A DNA stretch of 63,008 nt, counting the filler, from Atractiella rhizophila (taxonomy: Eukaryota), in assembly GCA_021432655.1 (NCBI GenBank). It is 4 parts of 4 records of this genome, joined end to end, with 100 filler letters (N's around TTAATTAATTAA, not from the genome) between each part and the next. Parts side by side here need not be neighbours in the genome. Positions count along the whole stretch, not along the records: positions 1 to 25,683 come from MU271767.1; 3 more parts are not named here. One strand, 5' to 3'. The stretch's first letter is position 1. Every line of letters begins with the position of its first letter. The translations under genes and the position numbers were made by a program. Below the pieces are notes generated by a model. That model had not been told where the DNA came from. It did not search any database and was given only the letters and a program-made list of their open reading frames with translations. This document shows, piece after piece, positions 14,104 through 58,541 of the stretch.

Positions 14104-14270
14104 GTAGATGTCCATATCCTTAATGTTGCCCAAAATCGAAAATTTGTACTCATGAGATTATTGAATCAGATTCGGTACAACCAGGTACAACATCCAAAGC
14201 TACACTTTACAAACACAAGGAAGCTTCTTTGCACCAAACTATCGTTTCGGTGACATGGTCAGAGACCCCT

Positions 14271-15613
14271 TTACGAACCGCGATAAGTCGAGTAAGCGTA
14301 TGGCGCCAGTAACAATGGGATATGATAATGCTCTTCCACGTTCTTGATTTCAAAAGGTATCTATTACAAGGCTGATCAGCATTCGCTGTGAGATCCGGAA
14401 AGTCACACACCTCAACGAACGGATAAAAGCTATGTATGCCTCGTTTGGCGAAATACTCGGCAGTGGAAAATGTAATCTTATAGATTCCAGCGTCGAGTCG
14501 ATGAGTGACAGGCAACAGATCGTTGCACCTTCCTTCCGTCCCAGTAGCACTATACCACATAAGATCCACATATGAATAAAGCGGTGGGAACAACCCACCC
14601 GTCGCCGATGTGGATGAAACCACGTTCTGTCAGTCTCTCCAATCGGATCGTGACTTCTGGAGCTGGAGATCCAGAGGTCGAATCGAGAACTAACAAGTCA
14701 AGTTAGTACTACAGTGTTCTGAAGGGGGAAGATGTACCATGAGCTGTTATTGGGCTCTTTGTCCTGGTCGAGACAGGTACAATGGAAGGCCTATTCACAA
14801 TTGGCGTCAACTACACTCTTTTCCCCCTGACTAACCTAGATTCAACTTTCCTCTTCTTCGCTTCTCGTTCCGCCAAACTCTCCCTCCTCCCGATCAAACC
14901 GCCAGCTAAAGCATCTCCACTCCCCTCTCCAGCATCAACAATACTGCCCCCACTGACACTATTCGCAAGCTGGATCTTCTCCAATTTCTCAAGCTTTCTA
15001 TGCTCGCTCTCGATCTCTTTCTCAGATTGACGGGCTAGGATCCTCTGTCTCTCCGCTTCCGAGATTTGTGGGCAAGAAATACAATGTGTTCGCATACGGA
15101 ACGCTTTAGGTTTATCGACTTGCCAACCACATCTGCTCTGAGAGTGAGGAGTGGGTCGCTGACAGGGAAGGCAGCATACGCTCGACAAGCGGCGTGATCT
15201 TTGTCTCCTTATCTATTGATGAGCAACTCTTCTTCTTATCATAAGAGGTGGTAGCGCACCATCGAAGTATGACCAAATGAAATCTTTGGGCCGTCCACCC
15301 TGCAATGCGACGTTGAACTCTCGTCTCGTCCAATTACATCACAAACAAAGCTCTACTCACGCCATGGGCGTTCTTTCTCGCGCTTGTGCTACCCTCAGCA
15401 GGACCAGGCAAAACATCTATTTCTCCTGGTGTATCCTGGCCATGAAGTTGAGTGTGAATCTGCCCAGCACTTGGGGGCGTTGGGACTTTGATACTGATGT
15501 CCTGGTCGGCTGGAGGAGGGTACGCGAAGGAGCCAAATTGCACTACTTGAACTTCCGATGGTCAGCCAGCATCCTGGACACCGGGAGAAACAAGATTTCG
15601 CACATCGATCCAT
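14271..15613 (-). CDS. BED-type zinc finger fused to transthyretin-like 5-hydroxyisourate hydrolase
   Basis: Spliced: ..NAHG|GGRPKDFIWSYFD|GDKDHAACR|ACGWQVDKPKAFRMRTHCISC..KKRKVESR|PSIVPVSTRTKSPITAH|VLDSTSGSPA..TEGRC..FYPFVE|..HYHIPLLLAPYAYSTYRGS*. The HIUase part is firm; the fusion and start codon are inferred. Confidence 0.75.
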
Positions 15614-16340: not shown

Positions 16341-17877
16341 TTATTTAAGGTATCGCGCAAGCGCGACAGCGGATAGACAGGTGACTACAGCAGCCCAGAT
16401 GATTGGGGGACTAAAATTCATGAGACGCGCAAAGCTTTCCGCCGCCTGAGGTCCCATAACTCTCTTCAAATTGTCACTACTTTCTTGTGCCGCTGCCTTC
16501 GCTCTTTTCAGCATCTTCTTTTCGAATCCTCCGATGGCCTTCAGCAATACGGGAGCTAAATCTTCAGTGTCCCTTACGGTGTGAGTGGATATGGAGTCCA
16601 AACTATTCGCCAAGTCAAGAGCATCCGCCATGGCGAGGTTCACACCTTCTCCCGCGAAAGGACTCATGAGATGGGCACTGTCTCCTATGAGAGTTACCCC
16701 AGCTTGAGATTCCCATGTGGCGCCAATGGGGAGAGCGTAGATGCCGCGTTCGGAGAGCTCGTCTTCCGCCTCGTGAATCAGGCGAAGGGATTCTTCACAC
16801 CATCCTTCGTATTCTTTCAGAAGCTCTTCTTTATTGGCTGATTATACGGTTAGGTAAGAAGATGCAGGTCGCCGAGCTTACAAGATCTCTCTGCTCCTGG
16901 TTGGTATGACGGAACAATCGTCGCACAATATACCTTCGTGTAATTACTCATCTGTGATGCAATGAGTCCCTAGGCAATGTTAGCTTGTTGACGAAGAATA
17001 TCAGTCAACTGTTCACCTTTCCCTCCCCAAGGATGAAAGTCAGACCTGAGCTGACAAACGCCCGAGTCTGACTACTTGGTTTCGTGATGTTAACTTCTAC
17101 AAACTGTACAAGACATTAGACGAATGAAATCAGAAGGGGAGTGGAATGGATACCTTGACGCCACTGAAAATAGGCTGCAGGTCATTCCCCAACAAAGAGC
17201 GGACTCTGGACCAAGCTCCATCAGCGCCAATCAGAATGTCGACTTCCTCGCTTGTCCCATCTTTGAAATCCAGAATATGCCTAAGCTGTGATCCTTCTGC
17301 CCGACGAGCAGACAGGAGGGATTTGTTCCAAACGATAGTTCCTTCGTTTAAACTGCGCAGCAGAATATCTCTCAACTGTGGCCTGAACCGGTCATTCTCA
17401 ATAGAATGTTAATTGCAAACCGAATTGAACTGACCTATCAATTTCTGGGCGGCCAAAAAAGCGACCCAGTAGAGGCTGCTTTTCGTCGTAATGCACCTTC
17501 CCGTTCTTATCCACAATCTTCATGCCTTGATCTTCGTATCTCGCAAGTTGCTTGAACTCTTCGAACAAACCGCATGCCTTCAGCGCGGCCTGTCCAGAAT
17601 TGACGTGAAGGTCTAAGCTTCCGCCCTGCGTACGTGACGATGAAGAGATTTCTCGCTCGTATATTTTGACTGCGTCCAAGTTCAAGGATGACAACAACAA
17701 TGGGAGGAGAGAGTTCAACATACCATCCGTGAATCCTTTCAGCTGCAGTAGCCGCGCTAGGGTCGTACCTGTAATACTTTGTCAAATTGATATGGCACAG
17801 CCCTGCCTGCATGAAAGAAATCCACCAGCCGGACCAGCTCCCACAATTCGCACTCGCAAATCTCTGGCACTCAGCAT
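16341..17877 (-). CDS. FAD-dependent monooxygenase, TetX-like (group A flavoprotein)
   Basis: IVGAGPAG|TTLARLLQ, YERE..RTQGGSLDL, RPEIDR, DILIGADGAWSRVR, GDSAHLMSPFAGEGVNLAMADA; hydrophobic C-terminal tail. Confidence 0.9.
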
Positions 17878-19721: not shown

Positions 19722-22452
19722 ATGAGTTCACTGACTGGTACTAGGAAGGTGATGGATAAAGCGGGAGGGAAAAAGAAACGAGTCTGTACGTTCTAGCTTG
19801 GTGAATTGCAACCAGCTTACTTCCTCCCAAATCCGCGCAGGTGGACCTTGTCGGTTGGTCATACGTGTCTTTAGAAGCAACATAAATAACAGGGTTGTGC
19901 CACAGGAAGAGGAAATCGCGCTGCGACTGCTTGCTACCATGTAATTGCTTGTTCGACACCTAGGCGTATAAGATGCTGACTGGTCGAACAGGTTCTACGT
20001 GCGTTTCTCGAGGAAAGGCCGCTGAGGACCAGTGCTACTATCCGGAAGATCCTTATGACCTGGAAAAACGAAGAAGAGAGGTTGTTACTCTTCGTAGTGA
20101 ACTCGATCGTCTGTCCGTTTTCCCTTTCGGAGTATGTGCAGTTCTGAGAGTTCGATACAGTGAGCGAATAATCGTGAAGATGAAGAGAAGCAAAGAGGAA
20201 CAAAGACGTTACTCCATGAGTGCTGCCGGGCCCTCTTCGTTCATGAATGGAACTGGCTGGGTCCGTTCTCAGTTGATCTTACGAACTTTCGCTCACGAGA
20301 CGAGCAGTATGATTACACGCAAACAAATGAAAGCAATGGGACATCTCTCGAAGACTTGGTAACAGAACTGCAGTCCCTCATCCCATCTTTCTCACAGTCT
20401 ACCCTATTGGTCAACGTTTTCCTGGAGAAGATCAACCCGACCCACCAGCCCGTCGATGGCGAAATCTTCCTGCAACAGCATTTGAACTTCTGGAAACTGG
20501 AGTGGACGGAAGATCCTTCGTCCCTCGATCCTCATTGGTTGGCAGTTTTCTTCGCCGTTCTTGGTCTCGCACTCTTCACGGGAAATTCGGAGGATTATAA
20601 GAGCAACAGGAGAAAGGAGAAGTCGGACGACAGCGACGATGAGTCCGATGACGACATGCCTCTCGCTGGCGTCTATGAAGGTTCGTTTCCACCACACTCT
20701 AGCTTCTTCGGTCTGACTGGGACCAGTCGCTCTCGGTTGGATGCACGCTGCACATAAATTCGTCTACCTGGGGCTAGATTGTTCGTAGTCTCGCGCACGT
20801 CACATACGTAGGAACCTAATTTAAATGGTTAGTAAATGCAAGGAAAGGAGAGAAACCGTCCCTAGACTGTGAGCACTCTCTCATCAACTAGACTACAGCT
20901 CTGACCTTTCTCCACAGCTATTCGCGCTTTACTCCTCATCTCCACCTATGGAGTCTTGATTGCGTCTACCTCAAATGGCTTAGCTGATCCTAACGTTGTC
21001 AAGAGTTATATGGAGCTCGCTATCAACATTGCGAATGACCTCCACTTGGTAAGTTGGCGGCGACCTGTTCAAGCCAGATTAATAGCGCTGTTTCAGAGTC
21101 GAGAGCTCGAGGACAAGGAAGACGTAAACTATTCCGAAATAGGCACTCCTATCGAGGATACGCGGGTACTTGAAGACCGTCGCCGTTTGTGGTGGTGTTT
21201 GATTCGTTTGTCGAGCGAAATGCAGTGGATGCTGAAGGGCTGGTCAACCCTGGGTCGGTTTCTGATAGGTGGACCGAGGCTTCCCACGGCGGGAAGTGAG
21301 ACGGATCGTTTCTGGGTTCAAGGTCTCCATTTTAGAACCAATTGCGCCTACCTTGTCAGCGCTTCGTTTATTCGTCTGGTATCATCTGAGTCGGGAGCAC
21401 AGCTACGAAAAGCCCAGACCATGTCTTCCACTCGCCCAAATCGAACGTGCACCCTTCAACAAACCTTGATACTTGCGCAAGAGCTGCAAGGTGCTCGAGA
21501 CGCTATACCCAACGCTCTTTTGCCATCTTGGGATGGTGTTGGTAAGGTCAACTACGGTTCGACGGACCCAGTCATGCTGGTTGAGATCCAACATAACGTT
21601 CGCTACCTTTGCTTAGCGGTTGCAAAGATACTTCGTCCTCACAGGAATGCGGAGCTTTCGATCCGTGAGAAAATTATCTACCATTGTCGTACGACACTTT
21701 GCATCTTTGCAGAACAATACTGAGAATAAATCTGATAGGACTACTCATGTCCTTCGACAGCCGCTGGAAACATCCTTATTCTTGGGCTAGCCCTTCGTAT
21801 TCCACTGTATGCGTTCATCTGTTGGGAAGTATTTGGTCACAATTTTTTCTAGCTTCACTGCATGTTGACGCTGGGAGTGATGGTCTTCGAAATGGAGGAT
21901 CAGAAATCAGCTTTGGCAATGCAACTGCGATCCGAGATTCGTTCAGCAGCTTCAAAACTTTCAAAACGTCTTACCACGGATCCACATGTCAAGAAAGCGT
22001 ACAAAATCCTCGAATTCCTGATCTCGTCAGAGCACAAAAATGCACCCGGTCAGCCCAAACCGCACATCCAATGGACGAGTGCCTTGGAAGAGCTCATACC
22101 GCCTGCTCTGGCGAATGTGAAGTTCATTCCTCCTGCTCCTGTCGCAATCGCAGCTCATGACAATGAACCTTTCATGTCGCATGATGAGGGAATGGATCAG
22201 CACAAGCCTTGGGAGGCCGATCTCGTTCATTCGTTGTTCGGAATGCAGGGCCTTGGTCCAGATTTTGCAGGATCATTCGACACCCTGTCTTCCGATTTTT
22301 CTACGCAGGTCCAAAGCTTCTCTAGCCTATCTAGCAGTCTGGATGATCAATTTCCAAGCAATAATCGCAACTTTTCCGACAATGACGAACTTCTTAATTT
22401 CTTGAATAGCCTCCAGACTGGCCAACAACTTCCTGAGGGCACAAGTGCTTAG
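19722..22452 (+). CDS. Zn2Cys6 transcription factor with fungal TF middle homology region
   Basis: Microexon-spliced KKRVCGPCRKRKSRCDCLLPCSTCVSRG..DQCYYP; FLEKIN..PHWLAVFFAVLGLAL; EDRRRLWWCL. Confidence 0.85.
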
Positions 22453-22808
22453 GCGCATTGAGCAGGATAGGATAGTTATCTAATGTAGCTTAATGTAGTA
22501 ATTCTCGTGATAATCTCATCAAAACCGTGTCCTTAATTCTGTGACTGAGTCTGGCGCCAAAAACACGATGAGTCTCACATGCGGGAGCCATCATAGAGTT
22601 TGCTAAAAAATGCTTGATTCGTTGATTTCTTAAATTTACACGTACTTGTTGAGATTGATCGACTAGAAGGTCCAGAAGAGTCGAAAACGGAACTCTCTCG
22701 ATATCGTCAGAGAAATCGGCCTACAGTTAGTTAAGACGGTAAGCGAGGTTTACACTGAGGTTGAAGAAAGGAAAACAACCTTGAAGCTTTGGGCAGAAAG
22801 GAATGCCT

Positions 22809-23141
22809 TCAACAACAGATCTAAGAAAGGTTGAGGACGACGAAACAGATCAGGGCAGAAGAGTTCGCCTACGAAACACCAACAACAGTCCCCGCTATTT
22901 CACAAAGGTTCAGAAGAATACGACAAAAACAACGGGAAACTTACGATCCACAATCTACAGACAACATAAATCAGAACAGAGAAAACTCTGAAGAGGATGG
23001 AGACGAACCACAAGAAGGAGGTCCACAAGTGTCACCTTGCCTCTTTGCCAACTCGAGAGCTTCCCTGTCCTCGACAAACATTGGCGTTGATGCCACGGAC
23101 ACAATGAGAAGTGCGAAGGCGAAGAAAGAGAATTTCTGCAT
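22809..23141 (-). CDS. Small secreted cysteine-rich peptide precursor A (58 aa, 4 exons)
   Basis: Exons 23141-23009, 22954-22945, 22894-22873, 22820-22809 with GT-AG introns of 54/50/52 nt: MQKFSFFAFALLIVSVASTPMFVEDREALELAKR-QGDTCGPPSCDCGSGDCCWCFICC*. TATA-like TATATATAAG about 55 bp upstream. Confidence 0.85.
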
Positions 23142-23555
23142 CCTGAATTCTGATCCCTTGATAGAAGCCTTGTCGTCTTGAGAAATATCTCTTATATATA
23201 GTCAAAATAGAAGACACACGTCGTGGGGTGAGCATATTCATATTCTAGGTGATCAAGGAGCCATAACCCTGTTGCGGTTTTTTCTCGCCGTTTGGATGAT
23301 ATTCCATGGATGAATGATTTTCTCCTCAATTTACTCCTCCCCACCAGTTGCGGGAGTGCTTGCTGGTTGACATGGTTAGGTTGTTACAACGTGCTCTCAA
23401 AATGCCGAAAGGTTAACATTGTAGTTTGTATCTCTGCTACATAGATGCCTAGGACATAGTCCCTCGATTTCCTGGCGTAAATCGGACTGCAGCGCACGCC
23501 TGAGAATGTTTCCATGTAGAAGTTAAAGGAAAAGTGCACTTTGTGGCTTAACTTC

Positions 23556-23786
23556 TTAACAGCAGACGCCGCACCAACAACAGTTGCCATTGCAGTCTAC
23601 AGCGAAGGTACAAATCAGGATCATTATTGTCAAGTGCCGACGAAAAAACGAACCGCAAGGAGGGATACCGCAGGTGTCACCCTGCCTTTTAGCCAACTCT
23701 ACAGCTTCCCTGTCTTCAACGAACATAGGGGTCGCCACCACCGCAGCGAAGAGGAACGCGAAAGTGAAGATGGAGAACTTCTGCAT
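23556..23786 (-). CDS. Small secreted cysteine-rich peptide precursor B (57 aa, 2 exons), paralog of A
   Basis: Exons 23786-23654 and 23596-23556: MQKFSIFTFAFLFAAVVATPMFVEDREAVELAKR-QGDTCGIPPCDCNGNCCWCGVCC*. Confidence 0.88.
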   Translation of the reverse strand: MQKFSIFTFAFLFAAVVATPMFVEDREAVELAKRQGDTCGIPPCGSFFRRHLTIMILICTFAVDCNGNCCWCGVCC

Positions 23787-24562
23787 ATTGTTTAGATCTA
23801 ATGCTTGACTTGTGTCTGAAGAAGTCGATAGAGCGAGACGCCACTTGACAATAGCTTGCGCACACATCCTTTTATATCTTCGCTCTCGGCAGGACGGGAT
23901 GAGGACTGCTCCATCACTGGCCTGAACTACCGCTAGCAGTGGGGGATCTACTCCTATCTTGCCATCCAATCGAGAGACAGAACGTCATCTCCTCTCTGCT
24001 TTCGCTCCGACTCCTGGTTTGATCGATGCAATGACAGAATATTCGGATATTGATCATGTCTCCCATTCACATCCCCCACTCGACTTTGGAGGCGGGGGAA
24101 ACAAACGTGAAATTCACAGTAACGATCTTCCCGCTTCGAGTGTGATGCAACGGGTGTAACGGAGCTGAGAAATCATTGACAGTTCAAACGTGCACTCAAG
24201 CTCAGAGCAAACGCAAATGGACTGGAAAAGGTAGTGAAGTTTACTCGAAAAAAGAAAGGAGGGGATGCCAAACTTCTTGACCCGAGTCCCCATTAAAGCG
24301 TAAATCAACTTATCTATATTTCCAACTCCAGCCTGCAGGCCTGAATCCTGTCAACGGGGAACCCAAGTTCGAGTTTTGAATTACCACAATCTCATAAAAG
24401 AATTGTTAGGACAACAATGCTGCGTAGAAACAAGGGTTAAATATTATTATGGTTCGGATCGATCTTCGCATCTTTTGCCCCGACAAAATTTTCAGCTGGT
24501 TTTGTCAACTTCATTTCAGTGCTGACCTTTCGTGTCCTCGGCAGGCTTTTGGGGATATTAAC

Positions 24563-25683
24563 ATGAAGAAGTCAAATTCTCTCCAATGGAAGCCCGTAAC
24601 AGTTGCCTTTGACGACTCTGATCCCAATTTTACCTTCGACTTCGATGAGATCTCTGATGTCGAAGTGGAGTGGGAGACCTTCGACAGCGGAGCAAAAAGA
24701 GCCAAGCTGAAGCCAAAAGGGAGTCGCACTATCAGCGGGGATTTAAAACCATCAGAGCATGTCTCGGGAACTGCTGAAATCGGCGAGGATGAGGCAGGAG
24801 CTAGCAAGAAGGGGAAGAAGAGGAAGCGGGTCAAGAACAAGGATGGAGAGGAGGGTCCTGGTGGGAAGAGCAAGAAGCAGAAGGTTGATAAAAGCACAAG
24901 TGAGCCCTCAATATCACCCACAGAGGAAATTCCATTGGGTTCTCTCTCTCCTCTCGAATCATGGCCTGAACTCCCGACACATCTCCACTCTGCCATCTCC
25001 AAGCTCTCGTTCACGCAACCGACGCTCATTCAATCATCACTCGTCTCCCATCTCCCTCTCAAGCACGATGTGATTGCTACGTCTCCAACTGGAAGTGGAA
25101 AGACTTTCGCATACATGCTTCCCATCCTCTTTCACCTGTTCTCCTCGGAACCTGAAGCCCCTGAACGATCTCTCGCTCTCATCATTACTCCTACCCGCGA
25201 ACTCGCCATACAAGTTGCGGATTCTATGCAGCGAGTTCTCGACGCTTGTACTCCTTCATCCAAAGGCCACAAGAAAATCGTCACCGTAACCGGTGGATTA
25301 GCCATTCAGAAACAGAGTCGGTTGATCAATGCTCAACTGCTCGGAAAGAAGGAAGGAATACTTGTTGCCACGCCTGGAAGGTTATCAGAGATGCTGGAAG
25401 AGTTAGATGGGCTCGAAGAAAGATTGCAGAGGACGAGATTTCTAGTACTTGACGAAGCGGACAAATTGGTTGAGAAGGGCAAATTTGAGGAGCTAGAGAG
25501 GATATTGCGAATCTTTCAGAGAAAAGAGGATGAGGAGGATGAAGAGGCAATTGGAAGAGAGGATGACGGTTTAAGAACCCTGGTTTTAAGCGCCACAATG
25601 GAGAAAGGTCTAATGGGCAAGTTGGGGAAGAAGAAGTTCAAGCGATCGACTGGCTCCACAACCTTAGGTTTGTATTTCCGTTA
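24563..25683 (+). CDS. DEAD-box RNA helicase, Mak5/DDX24-like (3' truncated at contig end)
   Basis: LQWKPV N-terminus, FTQPTLIQ, PTGSGKT, PTRELAIQV, GGLAIQKQ, ATPGRL, LVLDEAD, SAT. Confidence 0.85.
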
Positions 25684-25783
25684 NNNNNNNNNNNNNNNNN
25701 NNNNNNNNNNNNNNNNNNNNNNNNNNNTTAATTAATTAANNNNNNNNNNNNNNNNNNNNNNNNNNNNNNNNNNNNNNNNNNNN
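25684..25783. other. Artificial contig linker N44-TTAATTAATTAA-N44
   Basis: 100 nt with a six-frame stop cassette; genes on both sides are truncated. Confidence 0.97.
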
Positions 25784-28805: not shown

Positions 28806-29061
28806 NNNNNNNNNNNNNNNNNNNNNNNNNNNNNNNNNNNNNNNNNNNNNNNNNNNNNNNNNNNNNNNNNNNNNNNNNNNNNNNNNNNNNNNNNNNNNNN
28901 NNNNNNNNNNNNNNNNNNNNNNNNNNNNNNNNNNNNNNNNNNNNNNNNNNNNNNNNNNNNNNNNNNNNNNNNNNNNNNNNNNNNNNNNNNNNNNNNNNNN
29001 NNNNNNNNNNNNNNNNNNNNNNNNNNNNNNNNNNNNNNNNNNNNNNNNNNNNNNNNNNNNN
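28806..29061. other. 256-N gap lacking the linker cassette
   Basis: Counted Ns; separates the two reversed blocks. Confidence 0.97.
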
Positions 29062-51376: not shown

Positions 51377-51476
51377 NNNNNNNNNNNNNNNNNNNNNNNN
51401 NNNNNNNNNNNNNNNNNNNNTTAATTAATTAANNNNNNNNNNNNNNNNNNNNNNNNNNNNNNNNNNNNNNNNNNNN
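51377..51476. other. Artificial contig linker N44-TTAATTAATTAA-N44
   Basis: Same cassette as 25684. Confidence 0.97.
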
Positions 51477-58441: not shown

Positions 58442-58541
58442 NNNNNNNNNNNNNNNNNNNNNNNNNNNNNNNNNNNNNNNNNNNNTTAATTAATTAANNN
58501 NNNNNNNNNNNNNNNNNNNNNNNNNNNNNNNNNNNNNNNNN
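58442..58541. other. Artificial contig linker N44-TTAATTAATTAA-N44
   Basis: Same cassette. Confidence 0.97.

Follow-up and report, generated by a model that had tools for sequence, protein, structure and literature searches.

RESULTS

Two spliced genes in tandem

Genes A and B of Atractiella rhizophila, a tandem pair of paralogues arranged head to tail on the minus strand, are real, transcribed, and spliced genes, and each encodes a precursor made up of an 18-aa signal, a 16-aa pro-peptide ending in LAKR, and a single Gln-initiated mature peptide of 23 to 24 aa. The peptides are probably secreted, cut by Kex2, and held together by four intramolecular disulfides. The window, by which we mean the whole 63,008-nt stretch of DNA that was analyzed, is a single contig (G000:C588) from position 1 to 25683, and the remainder lies past runs of N (25684-25783, 28806-29061, 51377-51476, and 58442-58541).

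Sequencing runs were picked because they hold the stretch. Part of it was present in 16 runs from 13 studies, and the contigs of four of these runs (X1 to X4, from four studies) were examined. The runs were labeled as RNA by guess, and their contigs, which carry neither strand nor level, show splicing and not abundance; they argue for transcripts (mRNA) because they hold the intron-less form of the genes. The gene A joints 22820/22873 and 22894/23009, the latter enclosing the 10 letters of exon 2, were present in all four runs, and the joints were exact in each, which bears out the 10- and 22-nt exons that had been proposed for gene A from a sequence-only reading. That reading also gave gene A a 12-nt exon; the 12 coding nucleotides were correct, but they form only the translated portion of a 41-nt exon (22820-22780), as shown by an intron found in the 3' untranslated region (3'UTR). 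The gene B joint 23596/23654 was present in two of the four runs (the X3 contig holds gene B exon 1 only, and X1 stops short of gene B). In these runs the junctions agreed with the predicted introns of both genes and left the Cys framework intact. The features of the two genes, all on the minus strand (-), are as follows.

23871-23876 (-): TATA-like box of gene B, a motif match that precedes the ATG by 90 nt
23733-23786 (-): gene B putative signal peptide, 18 aa, hydropathy up to 3.1, small residues at -3/-1
23685-23732 (-): gene B pro-peptide of 16 aa with the LAKR Kex2 site at its end, 15 of 16 residues as in gene A
23654-23684 (-): first part of the gene B mature peptide (Gln start, Cys 1-2) and end of exon 1, from sequence and run contigs
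23597-23653 (-): gene B intron 1, 57 nt, phase 1, spliced out in two of four runs
23540-23596 (-): gene B exon 2, with mature Cys 3-8, the stop (23558-23556), and the start of the 3'UTR, from sequence and run contigs
23487-23539 (-): gene B 3'UTR intron, 53 nt, GT..AG, joint in one of four runs (X4)
23395-23486 (-): gene B last untranslated exon, extent covered by the X4 contig
23195-23200 (-): TATA-like box of gene A, a motif match that precedes the ATG by 59 nt
23088-23141 (-): gene A putative signal peptide, 18 aa, hydropathy up to 3.2
23040-23087 (-): gene A pro-peptide of 16 aa with the LAKR Kex2 site at its end, from sequence comparison with gene B
23009-23039 (-): first part of the gene A mature peptide (Gln start, Cys 1-2) and end of exon 1, from sequence and run contigs
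22955-23008 (-): gene A intron 1, 54 nt, phase 1, at the position of gene B intron 1, from sequence and run contigs
22945-22954 (-): gene A exon 2, a 10-nt microexon (Cys 3), its 10 letters between the joint sides in four of four runs
22895-22944 (-): gene A intron 2, 50 nt, phase 2, none in gene B, from sequence and run contigs
22873-22894 (-): gene A exon 3, a 22-nt microexon (Cys 4-6 and Trp), four of four runs
22821-22872 (-): gene A intron 3, 52 nt, phase 0, none in gene B, four of four runs
22780-22820 (-): gene A exon 4, 41 nt, with Cys 7-8, the stop (22811-22809), and the start of the 3'UTR, from sequence and contigs
22721-22779 (-): gene A 3'UTR intron, 59 nt, GT..AG, joint in two of four runs (X3 and X4), with a matching loose end in X1
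22621-22720 (-): gene A last untranslated exon, extent covered by the X2, X3, and X4 contigs

The gene B coding sequence is 174 nt and encodes 57 aa (coding exons 23786-23654 and 23596-23556, minus strand), and that of gene A is 177 nt and encodes 58 aa (coding exons 23141-23009, 22954-22945, 22894-22873, and 22820-22809, minus strand). All coding-region introns are GT..AG, with lengths of 57 nt in gene B and 54, 50, and 52 nt in gene A. Intron 1 has the same phase-1 position in the two genes and can still be aligned between them, and each gene has a 3'UTR intron that begins 16 to 29 nt past the stop. The two extra introns in the mature-peptide region of gene A, without counterparts in gene B, were either gained by A or lost by B, over a span of 40 coding bases. 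Gene B intron 1 is in frame and free of stops, and the unspliced reading is therefore an open 76-aa frame; retention of this intron (23597-23653) was seen in none of the examined run contigs, and translation through it would yield 76 aa, with a hydrophobic insert and two additional residues in the Cys region.

Contigs covering gene B started at 23824 to 23829 in X2 and X3, and those covering gene A started at 23148 in X3, 23155 in X2, and 23256 in X1. The X1 contig thus reached beyond those of X2 and X3 (23156-23256), to approximately 55 nt upstream of the TATA-like box, as might result from an upstream start or from read-through of gene B. In X2, 66 nt with noncanonical ends were skipped in the gene A 3'UTR (22721-22786) in place of the 59-nt intron, which may reflect an alternative donor, a strain difference, or an assembly artefact.

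The mature peptides and their likely processing

Both mature peptides carry 8 Cys in the order C-C-C-CC-C-CC (8 of 23 and 8 of 24 residues, or 33 to 35% Cys), as had been claimed for the two precursors. They are without Lys, Arg, His, and Met, have two or three Asp, four Gly, and an invariant Trp, and are net negative, with a mass of approximately 2.3 to 2.4 kDa as estimated by hand from composition. An even number of Cys with a terminal CC, preceded by a signal peptide, together with aromatic residues, suits disulfides. Because the mature peptides contain no Lys, Arg, or His, their composition makes a cationic membrane-lytic antimicrobial unlikely. AlphaFold2 modeling of the unspliced 42-aa reading of gene B gave a pLDDT of 62.8 and a pTM of 0.33, and Foldseek returned 0 matches to this model at E<=10.

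By hydropathy, both precursors begin with a secretion-signal-like N terminus, in agreement with the signal peptides assigned to both genes earlier; its hydrophobic core reaches a hydropathy of 2.9 to 3.2 and it contains no acidic residue. The pro-region, described as acidic in the sequence-only reading, has four acidic and three basic residues, and that description had to be dropped. It also contains V-x-x-R followed by EA, which could be another cleavage site. LAKR occupies residues 31 to 34 in both precursors and fits the extended Kex2 motif, which has an aliphatic residue at P4, Lys at P2, and Arg at P1 (PMC8528282; the papers cited here by PMC number are drawn on as excerpts, and statements about them hold for those excerpts). 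The assignment of KR as a Kex2 site is further upheld by a kexin-like gene in the genome, which was recognized from four P-domain matches and had yeast kexin as its best solved match (E 1.4e-8). The P-domain matches fell at two loci (C155/C992 and C68; L179-L181), and the genome may therefore carry two kexin-like genes; fungi usually have one (PMC8528282). The sequence criteria for K2PPs are an N-terminal signal and a pro-domain ending in KR, RR, or LxxR, and the A and B precursors show both, the signal being judged by hydropathy.

Pro-domains of Kex2-processed precursors can act as intramolecular folding chaperones (PMC8528282). Cleavage at LAKR is not to be assumed, because the pro-region of native cylindracin is inferred not to be removed (PMC11532979). 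Many Kex2-released peptides of Coprinopsis are pyroglutamated at an N-terminal Gln, a modification that is spontaneous in Pichia (PMC9769878). That the Gln start of the A and B peptides could likewise cyclize, as suggested earlier, is in keeping with a glutaminyl-cyclase-like gene on contig C32 (E 2e-5 to 1e-3 versus solved chains that include glutaminyl-cyclase-like proteins). Since the glutaminyl cyclases of Neurospora are localized in the ER, upstream of Kex2 (PMC5241404), such a cap may be spontaneous or partial. Three M28 pieces (L173, L175, and L178) were rejected as cyclases, their solved-structure matches being none, an aminopeptidase, and an aminopeptidase, respectively; a first frame of L174 gave no match.

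Constraint on the pair, haplotypes, and copy number

Exon 1 of genes A and B differs by 24 synonymous changes in 29.8 sites and 12 nonsynonymous changes in 102.2 sites (Fisher p 2.7e-12). At a pS of 0.80 the synonymous sites are saturated, and the duplication is therefore old. The pN/pS was 0.24 for the signal, 0.03 for the pro-peptide, and 0.17 for the first ten mature codons in exon 1 (Fisher p 9e-4 to 1e-6), values that come from small samples (16 codons for the pro-peptide and 10 for the mature part of exon 1). Amino acid differences followed the same course, with 8 of 18 residues in the signal, 1 of 16 in the pro-peptide, and 2 of 10 in the mature part of exon 1. The tail retains all five Cys as well as the Trp, and A and B have different residues at the two positions that precede the last CC. 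These results show that the pair is under purifying selection, with the signal the most and the pro-peptide the least variable part. Together with the splicing evidence, purifying selection between the paralogues excludes a chance origin of the genes.

The sequence-only reading had held that Cys is conserved while the residues between vary, as in toxin families. Conservation of the tail Cys was confirmed, but the variation was not: mature B has 15 non-Cys residues, of which at least 8 are identical in A (including the Asp codon split by intron 1), and pN/pS is well below 1. The toxin-family comparison is contradicted because in conotoxin superfamilies a shared, conserved signal precedes a hypervariable mature part on which diversifying selection acts (PMC4278219), the reverse of the A/B pair, in which pN/pS is below 1 throughout. 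The near-invariant pro-peptide is the most striking unexplained feature of the pair.

A second copy of the pair is present on contig C24, with 97.8% identity to the C588 copy (68 of 3142 columns differ), and is read as the other haplotype. The two coding sequences contain four differences between the copies, three synonymous and one an E-to-D change in the gene A pro-region, and three of the four recur in the runs. The mature part of gene A was invariant in all four runs and both haplotigs. No third paralogue was found in the genome (G000), which yielded only genes A and B, on two haplotigs, in a screen that, L007 aside, took in three ERQADTC look-alikes and 26 of 48 weaker matches; none of these had the signal, pro-peptide, and Cys layout. 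A filter for short frames with a signal, a dibasic site, and Cys, composed after genes A and B had been seen, returned only A and B in the 63,008 nt and nothing in 20,000 nt of C24 flanks. Two other observations were made in the genome. L168 1500-1530 (G000:C65), L169 (C135), and L170 (C1116) are a near-identical repeated element with a chance match to the KRQ pattern and are not peptide genes. L014 1100-2100 (G000:C109), possibly a degenerate or mutated rDNA copy, departs from L012 chiefly through transitions, some of them in the 5.8S.

Searches of sequence libraries and literature

All homologue searches were made with unspliced or exon-1 readings, and Cys-rich peptides of 23 residues are hard to detect. 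In a set of 5.8 billion sequences, the P0001 reading gave one candidate, with none at E<=1, and alignment A1 gave no candidate. An exact look-up found 0 of 3 partial readings, which were not expected there. The single match at E<=0.001 among 1.84 billion representatives was a 1632-aa LRR/B-repeat protein, which was rejected because it aligned largely over intron translation and kept no Cys. A pattern search of metagenomes gave 148 stretches with 0 confirmed, a search of the same kind for CCWCxxCC followed by a stop gave at least 119 stretches, crowded by simple repeats and none with a precursor by eye, and the best 40 rows of a metagenome tblastn search held only Cys-rich low-complexity sequence. 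The best ESM Atlas match, at 0.83, was automatically named "pathogenicity protein family" (Ascomycota; 129 of 256 features) and counts as no more than a lead; the P0002 reading had no match there. The P0001 and P0002 readings matched no Pfam family at E<=1, and solved structures gave 0, 0, and 1 matches, the last at E 5.5; peptides this short can escape both kinds of search. With such queries, the framework that the sequence-only reading did not recognize has remained without a match to any characterized family.

No homologue outside A. rhizophila was found in the sequence libraries searched, in which the lineage is barely sampled: the DEAD-box helicase encoded next to the pair is 98% identical to an A. 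rhizophila protein, and the other 119 of its 120 listed matches are only 31 to 43% identical. The presence of this helicase in the protein library and the absence of the A and B products suggest that the latter were unannotated or fell below a length filter.

Literature searches, which covered few subscription journals and in which frameworks are not always written as strings, returned no description of the peptide family. Among the listed papers naming A. rhizophila, none was on peptides by its title, and none on secreted fungal metallothioneins dealt with such a peptide by title or the start of its abstract. In the literature searched, the string C-C-C-CC-C-CC occurred only inside the 14-Cys array of mussel mytimycin.

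Genomic surroundings

The pair sits between a fungal transcription-factor-like gene, which ends at 22452 and has a weak Pfam match (E 0.016), and the DEAD-box helicase gene, which starts at 24563. Other upstream neighbors are Ssl1-like, nonspecific endonuclease, bromodomain, HIUase, and FAD-monooxygenase genes, and EMG1, DUF6534, and CCDC90 genes lie downstream on the second haplotig. The neighbors are mostly housekeeping genes, with no biosynthetic cluster evident. Because the N runs join several contigs, frames past 25683 (a helicase C-terminal domain, a myosin motor, and others) are not neighbors of the peptide genes. The FAD-dependent monooxygenase gene (16341-16841, minus strand) and the transcription-factor-like gene (approximately 19900-22452, plus strand) are divergent and lie just upstream of the pair. 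Together with an HIUase/transthyretin gene (14207-14629), they may form a catabolic unit unrelated to the peptides.

DISCUSSION

Resemblance to known peptides

The precursor plan of genes A and B is a known one, and the framework and Cys density appear to be new for fungi. K2PPs such as SnTox3 and SIX1/4/6 (PMC8528282) and copsin (PMC9769878), a Kex2-cleaved antimicrobial as cited in the latter source, have the same signal, short pro-domain, aliphatic-x-Lys-Arg, and single Cys-rich product, and the pyroglutamated Kex2 products of Coprinopsis share the Gln start (PMC9769878). They differ from the A and B peptides in that the latter are only 23 to 24 aa with 8 Cys and no basic residue, come from an endophyte, and have no sequence similarity found to these proteins. 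Cylindracin/PRI3 of Cyclocybe, also from a basidiomycete, has a signal, a 16-aa pro-region ending in Arg, and a Gly-rich mature part with 8 Cys in four disulfides, which are needed for its antifungal activity (PMC11532979). Compared by description, its mature part is 59 aa and basic (pI 8.07), whereas those of A and B are 23 to 24 aa and acidic, and cylindracin was returned by none of the database searches with A and B readings. KEPs also combine a signal with Kex2 release of peptides in the 9- to 24-aa class, but they have internal repeats between Kex2 sites (PMC6339444), whereas A and B have one Cys-rich core per gene and are therefore not KEPs.

Outside the fungi, hepcidin is nearest in size and Cys count, with 8 Cys in about 25 aa behind a signal, a pro-region, and a dibasic convertase site, and a Gln start in the fish form (PMC10663414). 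Unlike A and B, however, it is an animal peptide, cationic (+4), and different in Cys order (PMC10663414), and the readings had no sequence match to solved chains. The beta-ginkgotides share a Cys content above 30%, a mass of about 2 kDa, a prepropeptide, and the order C-CC-C-CC, which is that of the last six Cys of A and B (PMC5522442). They are gymnosperm specific and have six Cys in a 16-aa core and a C-terminal tail (PMC5522442), with six residues in loop 2 (PMC6651024), whereas A and B have two extra N-terminal Cys, no tail, and a single Trp at the place of that loop. The density that defines hyperdisulfide-constrained peptides, Cys above 30% of the cystine core (PMC5522442), is reached over the whole mature A and B peptides. 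Conotoxin frameworks XVII (C-C-CC-C-CC-C) and XIII (C-C-C-CC-C-C-C) have 8 Cys, a prepropeptide, and nearly but not exactly the A/B order; in the excerpted 2014 review the string CC-C-CC occurs once, in framework XVII, and C-C-C-CC-C-CC is not among the frameworks (PMC4278219), later ones having been checked by string search only.

Defensins have C-x3-C before a terminal C-x-C, an arrangement absent from A and B. The Cys order and loops of the CS-alpha-beta defensin, inhibitor cystine knot, hevein, and hydrophobin patterns likewise differ from those of A and B, which had no Pfam or solved-chain match to any of them in searches that such short peptides can evade. Metallothioneins are cytosolic, have no signal peptide, and have few aromatics, whereas A and B have a signal-like N terminus and Trp and Phe. 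Basidiomycete lipopeptide pheromones carry a C-terminal CaaX and no signal; the fourth-last residue of A and B is not Cys, and their N terminus is signal-like.

Possible roles of the peptides

A. rhizophila (Pucciniomycotina, Atractiellomycetes) is a facultative root endophyte (PMC6450171). We propose that its two old tandem paralogues produce single-copy prepropeptides, that the 18-aa signal would direct each precursor into the ER, and that the 8 Cys would form four disulfides there, with the conserved 16-aa pro-peptide aiding folding or export. Kex2 would then cut after LAKR in the late Golgi, and, by precedent, the exposed Gln may become pyroglutamate. The product would be rigid, protease resistant, and anionic, with a small hydrophobic surface (the invariant Trp, Pro, and Phe/Ile or Ile/Val), and its most likely action would be to bind specifically to, or inhibit, an extracellular protein or a wall component of some other root-niche organism, either a competing microbe or the plant at its apoplast, and not to lyse membranes. 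Taken as a whole, the proposal of a Kex2-matured, four-disulfide anionic mini-ligand for a target in another root-niche organism is one that we consider evenly poised between right and wrong. Against it, there is no diversifying selection and only two paralogues were found, unlike the case for toxins and effectors in an arms race.

The same low copy number and purifying selection would suit a ligand tied to the fungus's own receptor, and the disulfide-locked peptides could accordingly be developmental or cell-to-cell signals; Kex2-released signaling peptides have been proposed for Basidiomycota (PMC6339444). Such self-signaling nevertheless seems unlikely, as there is no repeat, no XA/XP after KR, and no C-terminal CaaX box, and no receptor gene was recognized among the neighboring frames scanned. 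Four disulfides are also more than the known pheromones of fungi have.

We regard it as quite unlikely that the peptides serve as secreted metal chelators, in which CxC, CC, and CxxC thiolates and Asp would bind Cu, Zn, or Cd extracellularly in the manner of a metallothionein. The 33 to 35% Cys, small residues, and net negative charge would suit this role; however, the secretory route oxidizes Cys, Trp and Phe are atypical of metallothioneins, and the peptides have no His or Met and no metallothionein family match.

The very high Cys density might instead serve intermolecular disulfide cross-linking into a wall, spore, or hyphal-surface layer, since the two CC pairs and terminal CC would strain a purely intramolecular fold. 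Hepcidin, with 8 Cys in 26 aa (PMC10663414), and the beta-ginkgotides, with 6 in 16 (PMC5522442), nevertheless fold as monomers, and the Cys order is unlike that of hydrophobins, with no Pfam match, which leaves a structural role improbable and, in our judgment, behind metal chelation.

Least probable of all is that the pro-region does more than aid folding, as a RiPP-like leader for a modifying enzyme or as a released active peptide, for although it is the most constrained part (one of 16 residues differs), contains the second possible cleavage site, and lies approximately 6 kb from the FAD monooxygenase gene, the neighbors are mostly housekeeping genes, the gene A pro-region carries the E-to-D polymorphism, and 16 and 10 codons are small samples. 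DUF3328/UstYa, of the dikaritin-type RiPPs, had no match in G000, where the control likewise had none, and was not seen among the neighboring frames scanned.

Meaning of the finding

A 23-residue peptide from a fungus whose 8 Cys follow a new order would offer a small, synthetically accessible scaffold and a candidate molecule for the dealings of a widespread root endophyte with plants or competitors. In excerpt, the paper that defines hyperdisulfide-constrained peptides gives animal and plant examples only (PMC5522442). We raise, tentatively and as somewhat doubtful, the possibility that A and B are the first such peptides from fungi, with a new four-disulfide fold, the unlisted order C-C-C-CC-C-CC, and a dedicated, near-invariant 16-residue leader, and that they stand for a class of ultra-short secreted root-endophyte peptides whose size and microexons cause them to be overlooked by gene callers. 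Because A and B are expressed yet absent from protein libraries that hold their helicase neighbor, other intron-dense basidiomycetes may conceal similar peptides.
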